Shown one piece after another: positions 49,412-64,000 of a stretch of 64,000 nucleotides of DNA (its first letter is position 1; each line of letters starts with the position of its first letter). The DNA comes from Iphione sp. A-MEVVRFRX5 (Eukaryota). A model generated the notes under the pieces. That model ran no database searches. It had not been told where the DNA came from and saw only the letters and a list, made by a program, of their open reading frames with translations. A program made the translations under genes and the position numbers. Location of the stretch: positions 142,228,001 through 142,292,000 of the forward strand of contig OZ320313.1 of NCBI GenBank assembly GCA_976226885.1, in the 5' to 3' direction.

Positions 49412-50889
49412 TTACTTACTTACTTAGTCCTCTTCATTCCAATTGGAACATAGGGCCTGGACTGCAGATCTCCATCTTGGGCAGCTCTGTTGGCTTCACT
49501 CCAGGTCATGTTGATGCTGTTGAGTTCTGCCTGTAGAGTTATTCTCCAGTTGTTGAACAGTTGTCCTCTCTTTCATTTTCCCTGTGGGTTCCAATCTAGG
49601 GCATGGCGTGGAATGTGAGCCTGTCCTCTATGTGTCCGACCAAACCCCACTTCCTCATCTGGTCACTCTTGGTGATTGGGCCTTGTTTTGTCCTGTGCAT
49701 GAGTTCTTCATTTCAGATTCTTTTTCGCCATCTGATGTGCAGGATCTGGCAAAGACAGGTATTGATGGAAACTTGCAGCTTGTTGTCTAGTCTCTTTGTG
49801 CTTCTCCAGGTCTCCGAACCATAAAGTAGCACAGACTTGATGTTGGAGTTGAATATCCGCAGCTTGGTGTGCAGACTAAGGTTTTCATTTCTCAATACTG
49901 GTTTGAGAGTGACAAAGGCCTAGCATGCCTTGCTGATCCTGGTCTTGACATCTTCATGTGCTCCTCCTGTCTTGCTAACATTACTGTCCAGATAGGTGAA
50001 GTGGTTGACATCTGCTATGGCTTGTCCCCTGATGTTAATGGGTGTTTCTTGCATGGCGTTTACCCACAAGCTCTTTGTTTCCCCCATATTGAACTCTAGT
50101 CCTGTCCTCCTTGCAATGTTGCTCAGCCTCTCGGTTTTCTCTTGCATATGTCCTTGGGAGTGCAAAAGCAGGGCGATGTCATCAGCAAAGTCAAAATCCT
50201 CCAGCTTTTTTATTAGAGTCCATTGTATGCCCCTGACTTGGTCTATGCTGGTCTTCCTCACCTAGTCTAGCACAAGTGAGAAGATTAGAGGGGATAGCAG
50301 ACATCCTTGTCTGACTCCAGTGTGGACTTCAAAAGATGGTGATAGGTTGGCATTGTGAATAACTCTACAGCTGGTGTCTCTATAGAGGCTCTGGATAACA
50401 TTGGTAATTTTCTGAGGGATACCATAGTGTCTGAGGATTTGCCGGATTGTTGCCCAGTCCAGCATGTCAAATGCCTTTTTGTAGTCAACAAAGTTGACAT
50501 ATAGTGATGAATGCCACTCCAGTGATTGCTCAATGACAATGCACAAGGCTACAATCTGGTCGGTGCATGATTTCCCAGCCTGTAATCCCACTTGTTCCTC
50601 TTTCAGTGTGGAATCCACAGCAGCTCTGATCCTTTCCAGAATCACCCTGGTGAAAATTCTGCTGGGCATTGAGAGAAGCTGTATTCCTCTCCAGCTTAAG
50701 TATTTGCTGAGATCTCCCTTCTTTGGAAGCTTCATGATATAGCCCATACTCCATTCCTCAGGTGTGTCTTTCTTTTCCCATGCTTCTTGTAGGACGTTGA
50801 TGAGGATGTCTGCTGTGGTTTTTGGGTCTGCTTTCAAAACCTCTGGGTGAATGCTGTCTGGTCTTGGTGATTTCCCATTTTTCATCTTC
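49412..50889 (-). mobile_element. 5'-truncated, degenerate RTE-clade non-LTR retrotransposon (reverse transcriptase and 3' end)
   Basis: Minus-strand RT motifs YVNFVDYKKAFD, GVRQGCLLSPLIF and LEDFDFADDIALL; KLRIFNSNIKSVLLYGSETW; terminal ALCSNWNEED then a (TAAG)4 tail. There is an in-frame stop near 50262 plus frameshifts. Probable 10-bp TSD: TTGTATCATC (49402-49411) and TTGCATCATC (50890-50899), one mismatch. Confidence 0.93.
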
Positions 50890-55665: not shown

Positions 55666-58050
55666 GGGACGCGAACGAGGCCCAACACAGGGCAGGTGGG
55701 AGGAGTACTTTAGAGCCACAATTTTTTTTTTCTCGACAGCCTGATTCGCGCGCAACGCCATTATGACCCAAGAGGACCTCGGGACCGGAGAGAGCTAAAT
55801 ACAGACTGACCGTCTCGGGCGTTAACACGTCGGCGTCGGCTGACATAAGAAAAAAACATGCTTCTCAGCAACTCTAGCTGTATAGCTGACTTGGTGTGGT
55901 TGAACTATAATATCTAGCTGTAGCCCGGGACATGGCAGTCTCAAGGTACTTCATGATTCTCAAGTTCTATATCGATATCCGGATATTGCTACTCAAGTTT
56001 ATGTTTTTATGTATGTGATCGTTTCTTTTCAATTTAAGGATTAAGAACTGATAAATATTTAAACACAGTAGAGAGAAACGACAAGCGATAATGCATCTTT
56101 AATTATCTAGATTAGCGGTCAGAAAGCAATAGGATGATTGAAGGTGACTAGATGTAATTGTGAAAGAGAAGCCATATTTGAATATTAAATATACATTGCG
56201 TTAATTATATCAGGGATGCCACTTGCTGATTGCAGTCCTGAACAATATTTGGTTGAAGGGTTGCGTTGAAAACGTTCGGAATTACCACTTCTTTGCACAG
56301 CAGCTCATCATGCCTATCTGATACAAATTGGTATTAATTGATAGTGGGGCCATCCAAACAAACTGTATATGACAACCAAATAATTGTATAATGTCACACC
56401 TTTGTGGTACAGGTAACAGAATTCGCCTAAAACAACGCTTTCTATGATTAGCTATAAAAGTGTTTCCTGCAATATTCATTAGTTGCAGCAAAGATGTAGC
56501 ACTGTTTTCAAAGGTCAAAGATTAAATGTGGGGGCCGCTAAATAGTAACCAAAATGTTCATACGTATGTACAAGTTCTTACAGTCTTCCAAATACAACCG
56601 TGAATAGACAAATGCATATGCCATGTCCAGACATGCAGATTCGCTTTGCCTGATGTCGGTGCAAAGGACTTACAGCAAACGGCGAAAGGCAAGGGGAAGT
56701 TGTTTTTTTAGCGTCGAGCGATTGACTGTACCTCTGTCATTGCCTCCCAGTCCAATGTAAGCAGCTGTGTGCGGCTCGTAGTGTTGACCTGCTCTCGCCC
56801 CGGCTAGCAGTGTGTCAGCGTGCAGCTCAGAGCTTCTGGCCTTCCTCAGGAGTAGGCGTCATTGATTATCCATTCACTGGGCCGGCTTGCGATGAACGGC
56901 TGCCTTCCTTTATGTAGCACATTGTCCGCTCTGTGTATAACGAAGCTCTACATGAAATGAAGGGCAGTGTACTGTGGGCTTTAGGCGCAGTGTATACCTC
57001 CAACCTACCCTGCCCCCTTGGTCAAAGGGATCAGCTTTACATTAGTAGGCGGCAGCCGTCTTCATTTCAAGGACCTTCTGTTGAAAGTTTTATCCATTTT
57101 ATATCAGGAGGTGTTTTCTATCATAAATGTGTTATTGTATGCCTATTCAGCTTCTTACTAATATCTTTCCAAAGTTCCTGTTGAATGTGGATGAATGAAT
57201 GCAGGCGGCCTGACATTTCAAATTATTCTGTAGGCTTAGTTTCATTTTGGTACAGTAGTAGCACTGAACCATACTTCGCTCTAACTGTAAATAAGGAAGT
57301 TAGATATGGTTTCTTGCCTCAGGCTTTTTAACCAGGAGCTACTAACTCTACATCTTTTACGAATAACGTAATCAACTACGGTGGAATATCCTCATACAAT
57401 GGGCCACTATGACCGCAGCGATCAATCAACTCTGACGTTGATACGGCCTCAGAAAAGCCTGACACCTTCAAGGACGGAAATTTTAATCAGGCTGTAAGAA
57501 GCAGCTTAGTCTGAACCGCACCCTAGACCGAGCTTCATAATGAATCTAAAGGACCCATCTCTCAGGAAACTCTACCCATTGATTTTTGCACAATATGAAT
57601 GCAGCTTTAACCTGCTTATTCGGAGAGATAAACGATGAATAGCACGTGAATTATGTATTTGTCTGAACACATGATCAGAGTTGCCAGCATTCTATGGTGT
57701 ATCTGTTGCGAATCTGACTTGGTACTCATATGGATTCCATTCAACGTAAGTTACATAAGATGGTGCGGATATTTCCCTGGCATGTGATAACTGCAATAAT
57801 CCATCACAATGAATGCGAATGTAGTTCGTCTATTCTCAAAGGAATGCCATCCAGATTTACTTTATTTTCTCTTTCTATTCAAGCTCTATTCAATACAGTC
57901 TCTTTGTTCTTGTTTAGTCGTAAAATGAACAATAGCTCCGACACAGACTGCAACAATGCCCTTTACGAGGCTAAGGTCACAGCACATGCACTCGTCCCAT
58001 AAACAATACAGCTTATCGAAAACATAGTTTTGTAGAACGACTCATTTGCA

Positions 58051-58200
58051 AGTAGTGTAGTAGGAGCAACCCTTGGACACAGTTTTAAGGTCACGTGACC
58101 AATGACGTCACAGGTCACATGACACGTGATGTCACTGATCACGTGACAGACCCTAAGAGGGAGGGGGTAGAAGGTCACATGATCAATGAGGTCATAAAAA
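58051..58200 (+). repeat. Probable Polinton left terminal inverted repeat with E-box/CRE-like motif array
   Basis: AGTAGT start; perfect palindrome GGTCACGTGACC (58089-58100); TGACGTCA (58103-58110); further CACGTG/CACATG copies to about 58180. The partner repeat is outside the window, so the TIR length is unknown. Confidence 0.65.
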
Positions 58201-58804: not shown

Positions 58805-59014
58805 ATGGTGGAAAAACAAGTAAGGATGATGTGGGAATGGATTCGAATGGAAGACGCAACGGGGAGACTAACAATAGATGACACTAAAGAAAAAAAGAAA
58901 ATAGATAATGCAAGGAAGAGTTTGAAAAGACTGGAAAAACTGAAGAAAACGAAGGGCGGACATGTAAAAAAACGAAGACAAAGAAAAAGGACAACAAATT
59001 TAACTAAACAAGAA
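58805..59014 (+). CDS. Putative pPolB exon 1 (70 aa, Lys/Arg-rich, NLS-like)
   Basis: ATG at 58805; MVEKQVR...KKRRQRKRTTNLTKQE ends exactly at a GAA|GTAAGT donor (59015), phase 0. The frame is open further upstream, so an additional 5' exon cannot be excluded. Confidence 0.62.
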
Positions 59015-59105
59015 GTAAGTATCACATTTGAGATGAACCACACACACATATATTACATTAATAACTACAATGCAGTTCATTTATACTACATATTTACTAT
59101 TATAG

Positions 59106-59306
59106 GAAGATCTACTCGCGGAGTTCCTTGTATTTGACCACACAACAGACATAGAAAGGAACACTGTTGAAAGAACGAGCGAAGATATGGACGATATTGA
59201 AGATGATTATAGTACTCCACCGACGGACGACAACATGACAAGCAACGATGATGATGGTGATGAGTACATTAGGAGTTCACATGAAGAAATAGCAGTAACG
59301 GGGAAT
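59106..59306 (+). CDS. Putative pPolB exon 2 (67 aa, acidic)
   Basis: Acceptor TTTACTATTATAG| ends at 59105. Frame EDLLAEFLVFDHTTDIERN...SHEEIAVTGN ends at an AAT|GTAAGA donor (59307). Phase 0 on both sides. Confidence 0.62.
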
Positions 59307-59514
59307 GTAAGACAGCGAATAAATCTACACATAACAGTGATCAATATTTATTGAAATGATACGATTACATAGGTTCACAGAGATAATACGAGTGTATGTA
59401 TCATAATATATATAACGTGATTAATCAATCAATTAATGATTATTGCAGAATGAGTAGATTGTCAATCAAGAACTAGGCATAGACATGTGATTGTATATTC
59501 CGTGTTTTCAACAG

Positions 59515-59844
59515 GTGGGAGTGGGTACTGCAGATAATAGCACAATGTTATTTAGTCAGTCGATTCACATAAACACGCGCGATGCCGGCGGTCGCGGTGA
59601 TGGTGACGACGTCGATAGCAACAGCAGCAGTGACGACAGTGGCGACGACAGTGGTGGCGCCAGGCACTACTCCGGGGCAGGTGGCGATGGTGGGAGCAGC
59701 AGTGATGACAGTGGCGGCGACAGTGGTGATGCCAGGCACTATTCTGGGGCAGGTGGTGCTGGTGGAAGCGGAAGTCAATACCAGAGTTTGCCATCACAGG
59801 CTCCGAGTACGTCATACGGGAGAGCAATCACAACTCCTACCATG
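59515..59844 (+). CDS. Putative pPolB exon 3 (110 aa, Gly/Ser/Asp-rich with an internal 24-aa duplication)
   Basis: Acceptor GTGTTTTCAACAG| ends at 59514; donor ATG|GTGAGG at 59845; 330 nt, phase 0. Differences between the two repeat copies are mostly at third codon positions in this frame. Confidence 0.7.
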
Positions 59845-59850
59845 GTGAGG

Positions 59851-59885
<35 letters not shown>
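59851..59885 (+). repeat. A35 homopolymer within predicted pPolB intron 3
   Basis: 35 consecutive A starting 6 nt after the GT donor at 59845. Confidence 0.95.
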
Positions 59886-59886
<1 letters not shown>

Positions 59887-59967
59887 ATGACACAAAACAT
59901 CATACATAATTTGTTGCAGTATAAATAACAGGTAACTTCAGAAATGCAATGTATTTATAATTTACAG

Positions 59968-60063
59968 GAAGACACCAATAACATCAGTGATAATAGCGAT
60001 AGAAGGGGCAACATGCCGTCAACTTCATCAGAGGCATTCACGAGAAGGAGACGATCCAATACA
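59968..60063 (+). CDS. Putative pPolB exon 4 (32 aa)
   Basis: Acceptor TTATAATTTACAG| ends at 59967; EDTNNISDNSDRRGNMPSTSSEAFTRRRRSNT; donor ACA|GTATGT at 60064. The next acceptor, CTGCATTTTAG|, ends at 60200. Phase 0. Confidence 0.7.
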
Positions 60064-60200
60064 GTATGTATTTATTGGTAGATTAGTATCAAGTCTTGAA
60101 ATAACGTTATATTTCATATTATTCAATACATCCAAGAAAGACACCATTAATTAATGCTGTTTATTTCCTCACACACATTTTCTATCCATCTGCATTTTAG

Positions 60201-63200
60201 CTGACCGAAAGCGCATGCCCATATTGCAAAAGGATGTTCAAGTATAAGGCAAATGCAGTGAAACATGCAGTAGACTGTAAAGAGAAGGCACGACTTCGAT
60301 GTTCAGTATGTAAGCGGAGGTTCCAAACAGAGAGTCTAAAGAGAGCGCACATGGAGAGATTTCACAAGAGGAAACTTCATTCATTCAAGTGTCGAAAATG
60401 CAACACGGTGCTAAACTCAAAGGAAGAACTCTACCTGCACGATGGTGAACAACATGGGGGAAACAAAGACGAGTTACAGCGCCCTCCATGGAACGAAGGA
60501 GACGAACCGTGGACGAGAACTGGCATCGGGGGAAGGATGGACGTAGACAGGGCAAGAGAATTCGAGAGAGTGTACTACGCAAATAGAAGACATATATTAG
60601 CAAGACACAGACAAGGTGACATATCTGCAACATATAATTTCCCAACAGACAATCTAGCTGAAGGTGGGATAGAATACGAAAGACAGATGGAAGAAGTATT
60701 CAGGCATGAACAGGTAGCATTCAAAGTGAACGTAGGATTCGGGATAATGATACGACACGTGGAGACAAACAAATTCCGATACTTTGTACCATATGGTAAT
60801 AGTAGCCTATTACCGGAACCAGTGCTCGTGTCGAGACGGGAAGACGTAGACAATGTCGTGGCCACCTTAAAGAACGTAGACCCAGAAAAGTATTTCACCG
60901 AAGATAGACCAGACACGAAGTGGGTATCAGAGGGCATCACCAACGTAGTATACTTCGTCTGGCGAACATCCTTTCCAATGGGTAGAGGTGGGGGTTTCCT
61001 ACCGAGGTTTCTGAAAGGAAGACCATATCTGATTTTACTAGACCAGCACAGAGATGGAAGTCAGGTAAAAGACGAACTATGTGCCTTCAGGTGTTTGGCG
61101 ATACACGAAGGAGAGGCGCACAGACTCGAAGAGAAGACGTACGACTGCTATGAGCAATGGAGACTGTTCATGGCGAGAAAGCACGGCATGACACTCCCCA
61201 TGAACGCACTAGAGTATGAAGGCGTCGATAAAAATCAACTATGCGACCTGGAAGAATGTTTCAACGTGAGCATATACGTATACGAACTAACAAAAGACGA
61301 AACGGTCATCATGCATTATAAGCCATTCCACAAGTTTGCAAAGTCAATGCACCTCAACATATACCAAGGGCATTTATCCTACGTCGTCGATTTTGAGAGA
61401 TACGCACAAAAATTCGAATGCATACTATGTAGGAGATGTTTTAAACGTCGATTTAACATACTGCGTCATATGAAGGTGTGTCCATTAAGGACAAGGTATG
61501 TATTCAAAGGCGGCTACTACTCAAACCCTCAGACAGTATTCGAGGAATTAGAGACGATAGGCATACACGTGGCAGAGGAAGACAGACTGTACAAGGACTT
61601 TGCCGTGTTTGACTGTGAGTCAATGCTGAGGGCAATGCCTGAGGGCGATTGTCCCAAATTGAAATGGGTGCGTAAACACGAAGTTATATCTGTAGCGGTG
61701 TGCAGCAATGTCACCGGATTCGAGAACCCAGTATGCTTCGTGTCAGAGGACACCGACGAATTAATGGACGAGACAGTGAGTTACTTAGAGAGAGTGCAGG
61801 AAGCAGCTATGGACAGAGCGAAGCAGAAATGGGAATGTGTACTTAGCGAACTAGACAGGCTAATGGAGCAACACCAACAACATCAGGAGCCAGCAGCATC
61901 AGACGCTGAGGACAACGTTAATAACGCACAGACCAGTGATGCTGATGATGATGACGATGACGATGATGATGGTGATGGTGACACTGATGACAATGACATT
62001 GCATGTGATGACCCACATAGTCAGATGCTAAAACACATAACAAAGGTATTCGAAAGATTCACGCACTACATAAGAGCCTTACCCGTATTGGGATTCAACT
62101 CAGGAAAGTACGATATGAACGTAATGAAGAGTGCACTGCTCAAACGACTGAAAAAGGAGGACGACGAAGACGAAAGAGAACTATTTGTCATTAAGCGCGC
62201 AAACACATATGTGACAGTCGACAACGGAGAGCTAAAGTTCCTCGACATTTCACAGTACCTTACACCGGGTGTGTCGTATGCAAAATTCTTAAAGGCATAC
62301 GGTGTAGAAATGCAGAAGGGGGTGTTTTGCTACGAATACTTAGATGGACCAGAAAGGTTAGCAGAAACACAGCTACCACCACACGAAGCCTTCTACTCGT
62401 CGTTGAAGGGGAGTAACATAACAAGAGAAGAATACGAAGACCTAAAAGTGACATGGAACCGAGAGGGCATGCAGTCGTTGCGCGACCTGCTGATCTACTA
62501 CAATAAGTTAGACGTTGGTCCGTTTGTGGAGGGAGTGACTCGTCTGCAAGAATTCTACTTCGATCGAGGAATGGACGTATTTAAGGTGGCAGTGTCAGCA
62601 CCGGGCGTTGCGAGGAGACTCTTATTCCAGTCCGCATTGAGTAGGGGCGTCAGATTTCCGACGTTTGGTGCCAACGAAGAGGACATTTATCAGACGTTTA
62701 GGAAGAATATAGTTGGCGGTCCAGCCATTGTGTTCACCAGGGCTCACGAAAAGAATGTGACACACATCAGAGATTCGACGAACAAGTGTCAGTCAATCAT
62801 TGGACTGGACGCAAACTCGCTGTACCTGTGTTGCATAGGTAAAGAACATGCAACAGGTACATATGTAAGAAGGAGAGCCAGTACGGGGTTCAGACGAGAA
62901 AAAGCTCCACTGTCCATGACAAGTGTGATATGGATGGAATGGGAGGCTAGGAACAGACAAATCACCATTACACACGCCCAAAACAGATACGAAGGTGAAG
63001 TATGGGTGGGACCGTACAGAGTAGATGGTATTGCAATTGCAGTGAGGATGGTGTTTGAGTTCAATGGGTGCTATTACCACGGACATGAATGTTTAAAGGG
63101 AAAGACGAAGGAAGTAGAACGAAAGAAGCGAGAGAGGCGTACAGAAGTCAGAAAGAAATTCATTGAGCAACAGGGTTACACAGTGGTGGCAATGGAGGAG

Positions 63201-64000
63201 TGTCGCTTCGAGAGCATGCTGCGAGAGAACGAGGAACTCAGAGAGTACGCAGAACGCTTCATGCCGACGTTCAGTGCATCACACAAGGACAGAGTGACGG
63301 AACAACAGATCATGGAAGGCGTACGCGATGGGACACTGTTTGGGGCAGTGGAAGTAGACATACAAGTACCAGAGAGATGGTTAAGTGAAGAAAGAGGAGG
63401 AGGAGGAGACAAGAGTCCCGCCGAGTATTTTAGAGAGATGTGCCCCCTATTTGGAAACACCACAGTGAGCTTTAACGACATAGGGGAACACATGAAGCGT
63501 CATGTGAGAGAACAACGCTTATCCCAGGCACCAAGAAGGTTGCTAGTCAGCACTATGAGAGCAAAGAAGACGCTGATCATGACGCCATTGTTGAAGTGGT
63601 ACGTGGAACACGGCCTCGTCGTTACAAAGGTGTACCAGTCAATTGAATTTGTTCCCAGAAAATGTTTCAAGTCATTTGTGAACGATGTCACGGAAGCGAG
63701 AAGGCGTGGGGATTGCGACGCAGACATGACCATCATCGCAGACACCATGAAACTGATCGGGAATTCTGTGTACGGTGGTATCATCATGCAGAAAGAAAAA
63801 CAGCACGCTGTTAAGTATTACTCATCGGCGAATCAGGCAGTACTGGCCGTGAACTCACCTCGCTTCAGACGGATGTGGGAACTGAAAGGACTGTACGAGG
63901 TGGAGATGGCAAAGACATGCATAACGCTTGATATGCCCGTCTACGTAGGATTCTCGATCCTCCAGTACGCGAAGTTGGTCATGCTCTCCTTCTATTACGA
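60201..64000 (+). CDS. pPolB: Protein-primed family B DNA polymerase (Polinton pPolB), main exon, more than 1266 codons, open at the window edge
   Basis: Hand translation from 60201 shows no stop to 64000. Motifs: ExoI FAVFDCES (D at 61611), ExoII LPVLGFNSGKYD (62094-62114), KGVFCYEY, ExoIII YYNKLDV (~62496-62516), NIVGGPAIVFTR, motif A IIGLDANSLY (D at 62808), motif B KLIGNSVYG (63750-63776), and GFSILQYAKLVML at the edge. Motif C (DTDS) is expected just beyond the window. Confidence 0.96.
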   Translation, partial: MTESACPYCKRMFKYKANAVKHAVDCKEKARLRCSVCKRRFQTESLKRAHMERFHKRKLHSFKCRKCNTVLNSKEELYLHDGEQHGGNKDELQRPPWNEGDEPWTRTGIGGRMDVDRAREFERVYYANRRHILARHRQGDISATYNFPTDNLAEGGIEYERQMEEVFRHEQVAFKVNVGFGIMIRHVETNKFRYFVPYGNSSLLPEPVLVSRREDVDNVVATLKNVDPEKYFTEDRPDTKWVSEGITNVVYFVWRTSFPMGRGGGFLPRFLKGRPYLILLDQHRDGSQVKDELCAFRCLAIHEGEAHRLEEKTYDCYEQWRLFMARKHGMTLPMNALEYEGVDKNQLCDLEECFNVSIYVYELTKDETVIMHYKPFHKFAKSMHLNIYQGHLSYVVDFERYAQKFECILCRRCFKRRFNILRHMKVCPLRTRYVFKGGYYSNPQTVFEELETIGIHVAEEDRLYKDFAVFDCESMLRAMPEGDCPKLKWVRKHEVISVAVCSNVTGFENPVCFVSEDTDELMDETVSYLERVQEAAMDRAKQKWECVLSELDRLMEQHQQHQEPAASDAEDNVNNAQTSDADDDDDDDDDGDGDTDDNDIACDDPHSQMLKHITKVFERFTHYIRALPVLGFNSGKYDMNVMKSALLKRLKKEDDEDERELFVIKRANTYVTVDNGELKFLDISQYLTPGVSYAKFLKAYGVEMQKGVFCYEYLDGPERLAETQLPPHEAFYSSLKGSNITREEYEDLKVTWNREGMQSLRDLLIYYNKLDVGPFVEGVTRLQEFYFDRGMDVFKVAVSAPGVARRLLFQSALSRGVRFPTFGANEEDIYQTFRKNIVGGPAIVFTRAHEKNVTHIRDSTNKCQSIIGLDANSLYLCCIGKEHATGTYVRRRASTGFRREKAPLSMTSVIWMEWEARNRQITITHAQNRYEGEVWVGPYRVDGIAIAVRMVFEFNGCYYHGHECLKGKTKEVERKKRERRTEVRKKFIEQQGYTVVAMEECRFESMLRENEELREYAERFMPTFSASHKDRVTEQQIMEGVRDGTLFGAVEVDIQVPERWLSEERGGGGDKSPAEYFREMCPLFGNTTVSFNDIGEHMKRHVREQRLSQAPRRLLVSTMRAKKTLIMTPLLKWYVEHGLVVTKVYQSIEFVPRKCFKSFVNDVTEARRRGDCDADMTIIADTMKLIGNSVYGGIIMQKEKQHAVKYYSSANQAVLAVNSPRFRRMWELKGLYEVEMAKTCITLDMPVYVGFSILQYAKLVMLSFYY

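Follow-up and report, generated by a model that had tools for sequence, protein, structure and literature searches.

Where does the polymerase gene of this Polinton begin? The window, a 64,000-nucleotide stretch of contig OZ320313.1 from Iphione sp., contains a long polymerase frame that starts at position 60201, directly after an in-frame TAG. The first methionine of this frame is residue 12, which lies past Cys6 and Cys9 of the first zinc finger. The first-pass annotation had proposed that four short exons, joined through four phase-0 GT-AG introns, precede the frame; the coordinates, lengths, and donors that we obtained match that proposal to the base (Table 1). Exons 1–4 contain no stops, are all multiples of three, and total 279 codons, and the four introns end in AG and have a GC content of 0.21–0.30. 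Exon 3 carries an in-frame 72-nt tandem duplication (59623–59766); in most sister copies, intron 3 measures 97–123 nt. Judged from the sequence, it is likely that the four upstream exons, with host-type spliceosomal introns between them, hold the start of the polymerase gene.

Table 1 Features of the polymerase gene and of the left end of the Polinton (positions in the window; L021 and L022 denote other loci of the analysis).
Feature	Positions	Strand	Remarks
Target-site duplication, left copy	58045..58050	.	6 bp; right copy L022:6410-6415
Left terminal inverted repeat	58051..58167	+	begins AGTAGT; partner end L022:6409
Exon 1	58805..59014	+	210 nt, 70 aa; net +14; two predicted helices; likely start codon
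Intron 1	59015..59105	+	91 nt, phase 0, donor GTAAGT
Exon 2	59106..59306	+	201 nt, 67 aa; LAEF motif, then acidic tract (net -20)
Intron 2	59307..59514	+	208 nt, phase 0, donor GTAAGA
Exon 3	59515..59844	+	330 nt, 110 aa; low complexity; predicted protease site at start
Intron 3	59845..59967	+	123 nt, phase 0, donor GTGAGG; 35-nt A run
Exon 4	59968..60063	+	96 nt, 32 aa; counterpart in 9/15 families
Intron 4	60064..60200	+	137 nt, phase 0, donor GTATGT
Exon 5, pPolB frame	60201..64000	+	on to L021:1021; 1607 codons; C-terminal NADAR domain
Three C2H2-type zinc fingers	60216..60455	+
QHGG, second predicted protease site	60450..60461	+	between fingers and terminal-protein domain
Terminal-protein-like domain (little-finger/PAD fold)	60618..60974	+	vs Pol eta: Z 5.3, rmsd 3.1, 99 aligned
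vOTU protease fold	60993..61400	+	vs OTUD1: Z 9.3, rmsd 3.6, 122 aligned

The Polinton that holds the gene is complete and spans about 22.4 kb between terminal inverted repeats (inverted match of 118 nt, 91.5%) and a 6-bp target-site duplication. Its integrase (L021:2192-4090) contains an rve domain (E=2.7e-10) and a chromodomain, the packaging ATPase gives weak FtsK/Pox_A32 matches (E=0.005/0.012), and the intact protease gene matches ASFV pS273R (E=5e-5). The double jelly-roll capsid protein scores 0.97 in the atlas to a cluster in which 30% of the members carry PF21738. Another gene is presumably that of the minor capsid protein. The ATPase, integrase, capsid, and protease genes are each a single open reading frame with its own methionine.

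The polymerase frame had been described as 3.8 kb long. The frame is present, but it comprises 1607 rather than 1266 codons, 341 of which lie beyond the end of the window. Exon 5 encodes, in order, zinc fingers, a terminal-protein fold, a vOTU fold, the polymerase, and NADAR. The polymerase matches PF03175 at E=7e-5, under the curated cut-off; together with homologues named DNA-directed polymerase and the terminal-protein-like and OTU folds, this match marks a protein-primed family B polymerase. Inverted repeats, target-site duplication, integrase, polymerase homologues, and folds all agree with the earlier identification as a Polinton pPolB. The terminal-protein-like fold (exon 5 residues 140–258) aligns with little fingers of Y-family polymerases at Z 5.0–5.4, a middling score (Pol eta: Z 5.3, rmsd 3.1, 99 aligned), and fits D1 as described in 10.1101/2024.03.18.585575. 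Because this fold lies in exon 5, the leader encoded by exons 1–4 is not the terminal protein, which the first-pass annotation had placed in pPolB N-termini generally. All 12 structure matches of the vOTU region with Z >= 8 are OTU proteins. The VSR-like region of the polymerase is marked by DUF559 alone, a weak match (E=0.013); a sequence search for a solved relative of the NADAR tail found none. A Foldseek search gave no match at E<=0.001.

Splice-aware prediction recovered the exon-intron model above all nulls. A splice-chain search that used approximate textbook site weights and a composition term independently gave exactly the chain of the first-pass annotation, with a score of 55.9. Neither any of 150 dinucleotide shuffles (best, -15.1) nor any of 197 stretches of host DNA from the window (best, 31.0) scored as high. 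Without the composition term, the best chain differed: donor 1, acceptor 2, donor 3, and acceptor 4 were kept, exons 2 and 4 were skipped, and cryptic introns were added inside exon 3. Site scores alone are therefore insufficient, and conservation fixes the model. The search is likewise unreliable by itself in some families, because it overlooked exon 2 in family G and exon 4 in families F and G and in copy L008, and because it picked the wrong acceptor in families H, J, and O and in copy L003. The models of families G, H, J, and O and exon 4 of F and G were hand-corrected by motifs, which biases them toward agreement.

The genome contains 15 families of this polymerase, whose N-terminal parts are 59–85% identical. 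In all 15, exon 1 is present and intron 1 follows the same codon; the protein motifs that flank this intron are conserved, and the likely start codon in exon 1 invariably has a purine at -3. The 54 modelled introns, four in each of nine families and three in each of the other six, all have GT-AG ends and are phase 0, and exon 4 is lacking in six families spread over the tree. Among the 52 introns modelled at an earlier stage, donor position +5 is G in 46, mean GC content is 0.26 compared with 0.44 in exons, and acceptors contain 64% pyrimidines; GT-AG ends, GTRAG donors, and pyrimidine-rich acceptors are those of U2-type introns. These conserved sites uphold the assignment as host-type spliceosomal introns, which are very likely spliced out. 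The layout is ancestral to at least 15 families, six of them with four exons only, a finding that does not fit the earlier view that this element had gained the introns. Comparison of the 54 introns with one another yielded nine short, apparently low-complexity matches, and an old introner origin would be erased. The leader features that the families share are the helices of exon 1, the LAEF motif with which exon 2 opens, the net charge, and a protease-like motif where exons 2 and 3 meet. The modular leader that had been described is indeed basic, acidic, disordered, and in frame, but its Gly-Ser-Asp and RRRRS tracts vary between families.

Sister copies also favor the model through their indels and splice sites. 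We compared 24 non-reference copies, leaving out of the counts the window itself (L001), L024 (exon 1 start motif not found), L009/L010 (a single copy that lacks a large internal part), and L032–L036 (duplicates of L011, L012, and L018–L020). Indels preserved the frame in 10 of 11 cases in exons versus 9 of 64 in introns (Fisher 1e-6), or 10/11 versus 6/37 after removal of homopolymer events (1e-5). Frameshifting indels thus numbered one in exons versus 55 in introns. Two observations in family B run the other way: one copy carries a frameshift in exon 3, and intron 3 or 4 can be translated through in frame. Splice dinucleotides were intact at 187 of 188 positions, and the one lost belongs to a copy with an already broken polymerase frame. 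Exon 1 showed synonymous enrichment, with 15 of 28 changes synonymous versus 7.7 expected (P=0.0017), indicating purifying selection. Matched for base context, exons 1–4 pooled showed no enrichment (47/131 versus 42.0 +/- 4.0, P=0.135) and no codon-position bias of substitutions (P=0.23), and exons (132/3501) and introns (108/3026) changed at similar rates; exons 2–4 are therefore weakly constrained at the residue level. A raw pN/pS of 0.46 (P=5e-5) was dropped as evidence, since the context-matched null removed the signal; the exon 1 result alone stands.

We propose that the host nucleus is the likely site of transcription of the polymerase gene, that removal of its four introns yields one long precursor, and that the protease of the element would then detach the 279-residue leader. 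We assign a probability of about 0.6 to this explanation as a whole. The odds appear even that basic, helical exon 1 brings the precursor to the nucleus or DNA, with exons 2–4 serving as an acidic, flexible spacer.

The case for cleavage comes from two glycine motifs. In 13 of 15 families (not in C and K), [Q/N]-x-G-x-G marks the junction of exons 2 and 3. Over 1890 leader residues we counted 10 occurrences of Q-x-G-x-G, where composition predicts about one; all lie in the first residues of exon 3. In families A (Asn), B, and G (both Gln), the motif forms only across the predicted junction or via a tandem acceptor, and in the family of the present copy exon 2 contributes the P4 residue of the exon 3 site. 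Ahead of the terminal-protein domain, QHG[GA] is found in all 15 families. Adenovirus protease processes pTP and cuts XGX/G and XGG/X with M/I/L, or in relaxed form Q/N, at P4 (PMC4246237). Both predicted sites have this relaxed adenain-type form, in which the P4 rule is adenoviral and does not derive from any Polinton protease. Among 20 database homologues, seven carry Q-x-G-x-G or Q-x-G-G just before the terminal-protein-like region in their first 520 residues, and one more (P0013) has such a motif further upstream. By analogy with the conversion of pTP to TP, an Ulp1/adenain-like protease might cut both sites and thereby remove leader and fingers from the terminal protein, a step on which we are evenly divided. 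An unlikely alternative is that splicing is real and the leader stays uncleaved as a lasting disordered N-terminal tail with a nuclear-localization signal, the glycine motifs being linker. The weak constraint on exons 2–4, the glycine richness of exon 3, and the two families that lack the motif would suit such a tail. However, the motif holds one position in 13 families even though exon 3 averages just 25% identity between families, and a similar motif precedes the terminal-protein domain in every family. The conserved motifs suggest that splicing yields a precursor which the protease then processes, much as happens to adenovirus pTP.

Splicing is most likely constitutive. The first-pass annotation had envisioned splicing control of the replicase. 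Under such a scheme, intron retention or exon skipping could switch production from short proteins made of the leader alone to the complete replicase. Phase-0 introns do let any exon drop out in frame, retained introns of this copy lead to a stop within 5–40 codons, and exon 4 is missing from scattered families. Such permissiveness does not amount to support, and we regard regulation as improbable: read-through lengths vary from 1 to 49 codons or are open, intronic AATAAA signals are unconserved, and families share just 44% identity in intron 1.

In all 15 families, a phase-0 acceptor lies 5–23 codons upstream of the first cysteine, and a phase-0 donor–acceptor pair connects the polymerase frame with the final leader exon. 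The main product very probably contains the leader joined to the polymerase, and this arrangement weighs against the idea that exons 1–4 form a separate small spliced gene, encoding an Oncoid-like or core protein, while the polymerase uses its own methionine. Adintoviruses do have small Oncoid genes, usually upstream of PolB (PMC8502044). The idea also draws on families F, G, and L, which have a usable methionine between the last acceptor and the first cysteine. The argument that an unspliced start would break finger 1 is therefore not universal; it holds in 12 of 15 families, this one included, in which the first in-frame methionine after the last acceptor is past the first cysteine. We nevertheless consider a separate gene very unlikely, given that such a methionine is not conserved, that a search across the families found no conserved intronic polyadenylation signal, and that the leader exons, scanned singly, contain an LxCxE or CR1 motif in none of the 15 families. 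The families share no conserved TATA box either. That the exons are chance open stretches of unspliced AT-rich DNA is highly improbable: plausible chains (scores 32–47) also occur upstream of relatives with their own methionine, but the null controls, indel pattern, retained splice sites, and conserved motifs flanking intron 1 in 15 families argue otherwise.

We also searched for the leader beyond this genome. A profile of exon 1 matched none of 1.84 billion representatives, no leader homologue appeared among 8000 longer candidates and no usable match in the atlas, and exons 1–4 had no Pfam match; with so short and lysine-rich a query, these absences weigh little. Among viral contigs, one search turned up two marginal loci and a later one none. 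In other hosts, the fingers of many relatives are preceded by an in-frame methionine, so that no splicing is required (e.g., L064, L071, and L073). Relatives from metagenomes appear to have multi-exon leaders unrelated to this one. The terminal-protein-like and vOTU domains before the polymerase are shared with the Beta-adintovirus/pPolB2 class, as are the inverted repeats, 6-bp duplication, and integrase, ATPase, capsid, and protease genes; that class is defined by divergence from the PF03175 type, an OTU domain, and, in a marine subgroup, a VSR insertion (PMC8502044; 10.1101/2023.08.22.554363; 10.1101/2024.03.18.585575). The weak PF03175 match and the OTU fold are compatible with that class. 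The intronless baseline cited in the first-pass annotation is in print (PMC8097293; 10.1101/2022.07.12.499685), and this gene departs from it, because three or four predicted introns interrupt its coding leader. A further difference is the NADAR domain at its C-terminus. Our literature searches turned up no account of such a spliced leader; Repbase and Kapitonov and Jurka (2006) may describe multi-exon POLB, and the genome maps that accompany PMC8502044 may bear on novelty.

The start codon of adenovirus Pol lies on a spliced upstream exon. The same is true of E2B pTP, whose first exon in HAdV-37 is 9 nt (PMC2397415), and pTP is trimmed at glycine motifs by the viral protease (PMC4246237), as predicted here. 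In adenoviruses, the upstream exon supplies just three residues from beyond a long intron and pTP is made as a protein of its own, whereas here 173–279 residues come from three or four exons with short, host-like introns in a terminal protein–polymerase fusion. Dinoflagellate Maverick/Polinton-like proviruses also carry spliceosomal introns, but these introners are recent, repetitive, mostly post-integration insertions (PMC11957031), unlike the present introns, which appear old and mutually dissimilar and are restricted to the leader of one gene. Mirusviruses have spliceosomal introns in core genes, taken as a sign of nuclear expression, but they are unrelated viruses with introns across many genes (PMC12768974). 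Nematode Mavericks carry spliced genes that are captured host cargo rather than a core replicase (10.1101/2022.07.12.499685).

Polinton core genes have been described and sought as intron-free single ORFs (PMC8097293; ORF-based pipeline 10.1101/2023.08.22.554363). With a conserved spliced leader, the true N-terminus of these replicases would have been missed, and the host spliceosome would be needed, so that the gene would be expressed in the nucleus. What appears new is that, across families, a protease-like motif recurs where exons 2 and 3 meet and QHG[GA] precedes the terminal protein; the two motifs offer candidate cleavage sites for an uncharacterized Polinton protease. It is tempting to speculate, quite tentatively, that in a whole branch of animal Polintons the replicase is a polyprotein spliced together from several exons (leader, zinc fingers, terminal protein, and vOTU-polymerase-NADAR), which the element's protease cuts at Gln-x-Gly-x-Gly, with one site made by a splice junction; such polymerases would be truncated in ORF surveys and would represent a fused forerunner of the adenovirus arrangement. 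Adenoviruses provide the precedent, and adenovirus-like splicing and precursor processing may predate them.

The five-exon structure that the first-pass annotation proposed for this Polinton's pPolB gene was reproduced exactly at every coordinate. Exons 1–4 (210, 201, 330, and 96 nt) are free of stop codons, and the long polymerase frame follows an in-frame TAG. The introns (91, 208, 123, and 137 nt) are all GT-AG and phase 0, with a GC content of 0.21–0.30. A purpose-written splice-chain search, anchored solely at the start codon and at the first Cys of the zinc fingers, recovered the identical model with a score of 55.9, which was matched by none of 150 shuffles and none of 197 host stretches. 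When the composition term was dropped, the top chain retained only 4 of the 8 splice sites; the case therefore depends on comparisons between copies and families. These lead us to conclude that the feature is real and that the five-exon model is very probably right.

The genome contains at least 150 polymerase matches (150 of 765 candidates were scored), from which 24 copies in five families were compared with one reference per family. Nearly all splice dinucleotides (187/188) are unchanged, and exons 1–4 keep their reading frame: 10 of 11 exonic indels are in frame vs 9 of 64 intronic ones, or 10/11 vs 6/37 with homopolymer events excluded. The 131 exon changes include no new stop, where only 2.1 were expected (P=0.10). 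The synonymous enrichment anticipated for a coding leader held only in part. Pooled over exons 1–4, the excess disappears against a context-matched null (47 vs 42.0 expected, P=0.135); exon 1 by itself is clearly constrained (15/28 synonymous vs 7.7 expected, P=0.0017). In-frame indels without a pooled synonymous excess indicate that in exons 2–4 the reading frame is maintained while the sequence is nearly unconstrained. In one sister copy (L009/L010), an internal deletion joins part of exon 1 to exon 5 in a single 505-codon open frame; it was rejected as a processed copy because the deletion ends do not fall at splice sites.

The same layout recurs in 15 Polinton families of this genome, whose polymerase N-terminal parts are 59–85% identical. 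One copy per family was picked by eye from score tiers, a sample that covers the less distant families, and six of the 15 models were hand-corrected. In every family, exon 1 encodes 61–84 amino acids with a net charge of +8 to +21 and has a purine at -3, intron 1 occupies the same codon position, exon 2 opens with an LAEF-type motif followed by an acidic stretch, and a phase-0 acceptor lies 5–23 codons upstream of the first Cys. Each of the 54 introns modelled has GT-AG ends and lies in phase 0. Leaders span 173–279 amino acids, with four introns in nine families and three in six; intron number is unclustered on a family tree that predates the finding of exon 4 in families F and G. Between families, exon 1 averages 40% identity and exon 3 25%, compared with 61% over the 11 codons that open exon 2; intron 1 DNA is 44% identical. 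Exon 1 is predicted to form two helices (pLDDT 72). The spliced leader, first taken as an intron gain by this element, was instead inherited across a large Polinton clade rather than gained recently.

In the available excerpts, intact vertebrate Mavericks are termed intronless, after Kapitonov and Jurka (PMC8097293), as are nematode Maverick core genes, with introns in cargo genes (10.1101/2022.07.12.499685). Excerpts of adintovirus and nematode pPolB papers (PMC8502044, 10.1101/2023.08.22.554363) make no mention of a spliceosomal intron in PolB. Our literature search, with Kapitonov and Jurka 2006 and Repbase outside its scope, found no report of splicing in a Polinton polymerase. Partial texts describe introners in dinoflagellate proviruses (PMC11957031), group I introns in cryptophyte PLVs (PMC12220804), spliceosomal introns in mirusviruses (PMC12768974), and a predicted 9-nt first exon in HAdV-37 pTP (PMC2397415); those of PMC7851563, PMC8504770, PMC6431247, and 10.64898/2026.07.28.741278 added nothing further.

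The gene lies 754 nt inward of the left end of an element of ~22.4 kb bounded by a 118-nt inverted repeat and a 6-bp target-site duplication. Downstream of pPolB come four single-ORF genes (ATPase, rve-chromo integrase, capsid-like, and pS273R-like protease) and then cargo. Two of the three Pfam-less cargo ORFs resemble signal-peptide, Cys-rich, single-pass membrane proteins; the third is an 817-codon frame rich in Ser/Thr/Pro. Palindromes similar to those in the terminal repeat occur at the ends of other families.

Features of the Polinton and related loci (L021 and L022, DNA beyond the window's right edge; L032, a sister copy)
Feature	Location	Strand	Remark
Exon 1	window 58805-59014		
Exon 2	window 59106-59306		
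Exon 3	window 59515-59844		
Exon 4	window 59968-60063		
Exon 5	window from 60201		polymerase frame
NADAR domain	L021:617-1021		PF08719, E=5.7e-12; just past window
VSR-like region	window 62985-63194		weak (DUF559, E=0.013); within polymerase
TIR palindromes	window 58088-58194		repeated, GTCAC(G/A)TGAC-type
28-nt inverted pair	window 58090-58147		in TIR
Short inverted matches to polymerase gene	window 50072-50441		20-30 nt; suggest a decayed minus-strand pPolB fragment
Cargo ORF	L021:7370-8293	-	no Pfam match
Cargo ORF	L021:8845-9564	+	no Pfam match
Cargo ORF	L022:2-2452	+	no Pfam match
Two ORFs near right end	L022:4456-5801	-	AT-rich surroundings; may also be spliced
Internal-deletion copy (L009/L010)	G000:C15:8273701-8274896		
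Family B, intron 2 donor region	L032:3155-3185		GC in place of GT

The polymerase frame comprises 1607 codons and ends in the NADAR domain, which is also present in 16 of 17 long sister-family loci (58–77% identity), as well as in the database homologue P0001 and a single one of the 80 metagenome loci. Our literature search turned up no title describing a fusion of this kind; two papers mention both Polintons and NADAR. The related pPolB P0006 ends in PF14216 instead, and the tail module is therefore exchangeable. The homologues that carry names come from molluscs and echinoderms (25–33% identity), and a marine invertebrate is the probable host. A VSR-like region is reported for marine pPolB2 in an excerpt of 10.1101/2023.08.22.554363. 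An AlphaFold model of residues 1–500 of the frame (pLDDT 81.5) contains the zinc fingers, a little-finger/PAD-like fold at residues 140–258 (Z about 5, a middling match), and an OTU fold at residues 265–400 (Z 9.3). Since this order matches the TP-vOTU arrangement described in the available part of 10.1101/2024.03.18.585575, the modelled folds place the terminal protein in exon 5.

Exon 3 is poorly conserved save at its start, where ten families carry Q-x-G-x-G (10 per 1890 residues vs about 1 expected). The motif Gln is contributed by exon 2 in family B and via a tandem acceptor in family G, and in the window's own family exon 2 provides the Asn of the exon 2/3 motif; families C and K, among the 15 examined, have no motif of this type at the exon 3 start. 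In family B, GC replaces the intron 2 GT donor of other families, and use of a phase-0 GT donor 24 nt upstream gives the Gln. A second motif, QHG[GA], lies between the zinc fingers and the TP domain in all 15 families. According to an excerpt of PMC4246237, the adenovirus protease, which matures pTP, cuts at XGX/G and XGG/X and tolerates either Gln or Asn as the P4 residue. By analogy, we infer that the leader-polymerase precursor would be cut by the element's own protease at the predicted sites.

Metagenome pPolB loci vary (80 found, 29 inspected, 12 submitted to the splice-chain search). Some (L064, L071, L073) have an in-frame Met ahead of the fingers that makes splicing unnecessary; in others, the predicted leader has several exons, is mostly phase 0, and shows no sequence relationship to that of the window. 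Single-locus predictions give seven leader introns in L083, four in L081, and a multi-exon leader in L078; in L085 and L108, the long frame follows a TAG, the first Met is residue 172 or 652, and phase-0 mini-exons are predicted upstream. Q-x-G-x-G also occurs upstream of the fingers in L081, L083, and L108. Each of these predictions comes from one locus, and chains scoring 32–47 were also returned where splicing is unneeded; we therefore treat these multi-exon leaders as leads.

The first-pass annotation had proposed that the introns allow splicing control of the replicase, an idea that is unsupported. Constitutive splicing is preferred, and on the best reading pPolB is made as a precursor that is spliced constitutively, carries a basic leader for targeting, and contains predicted protease sites.
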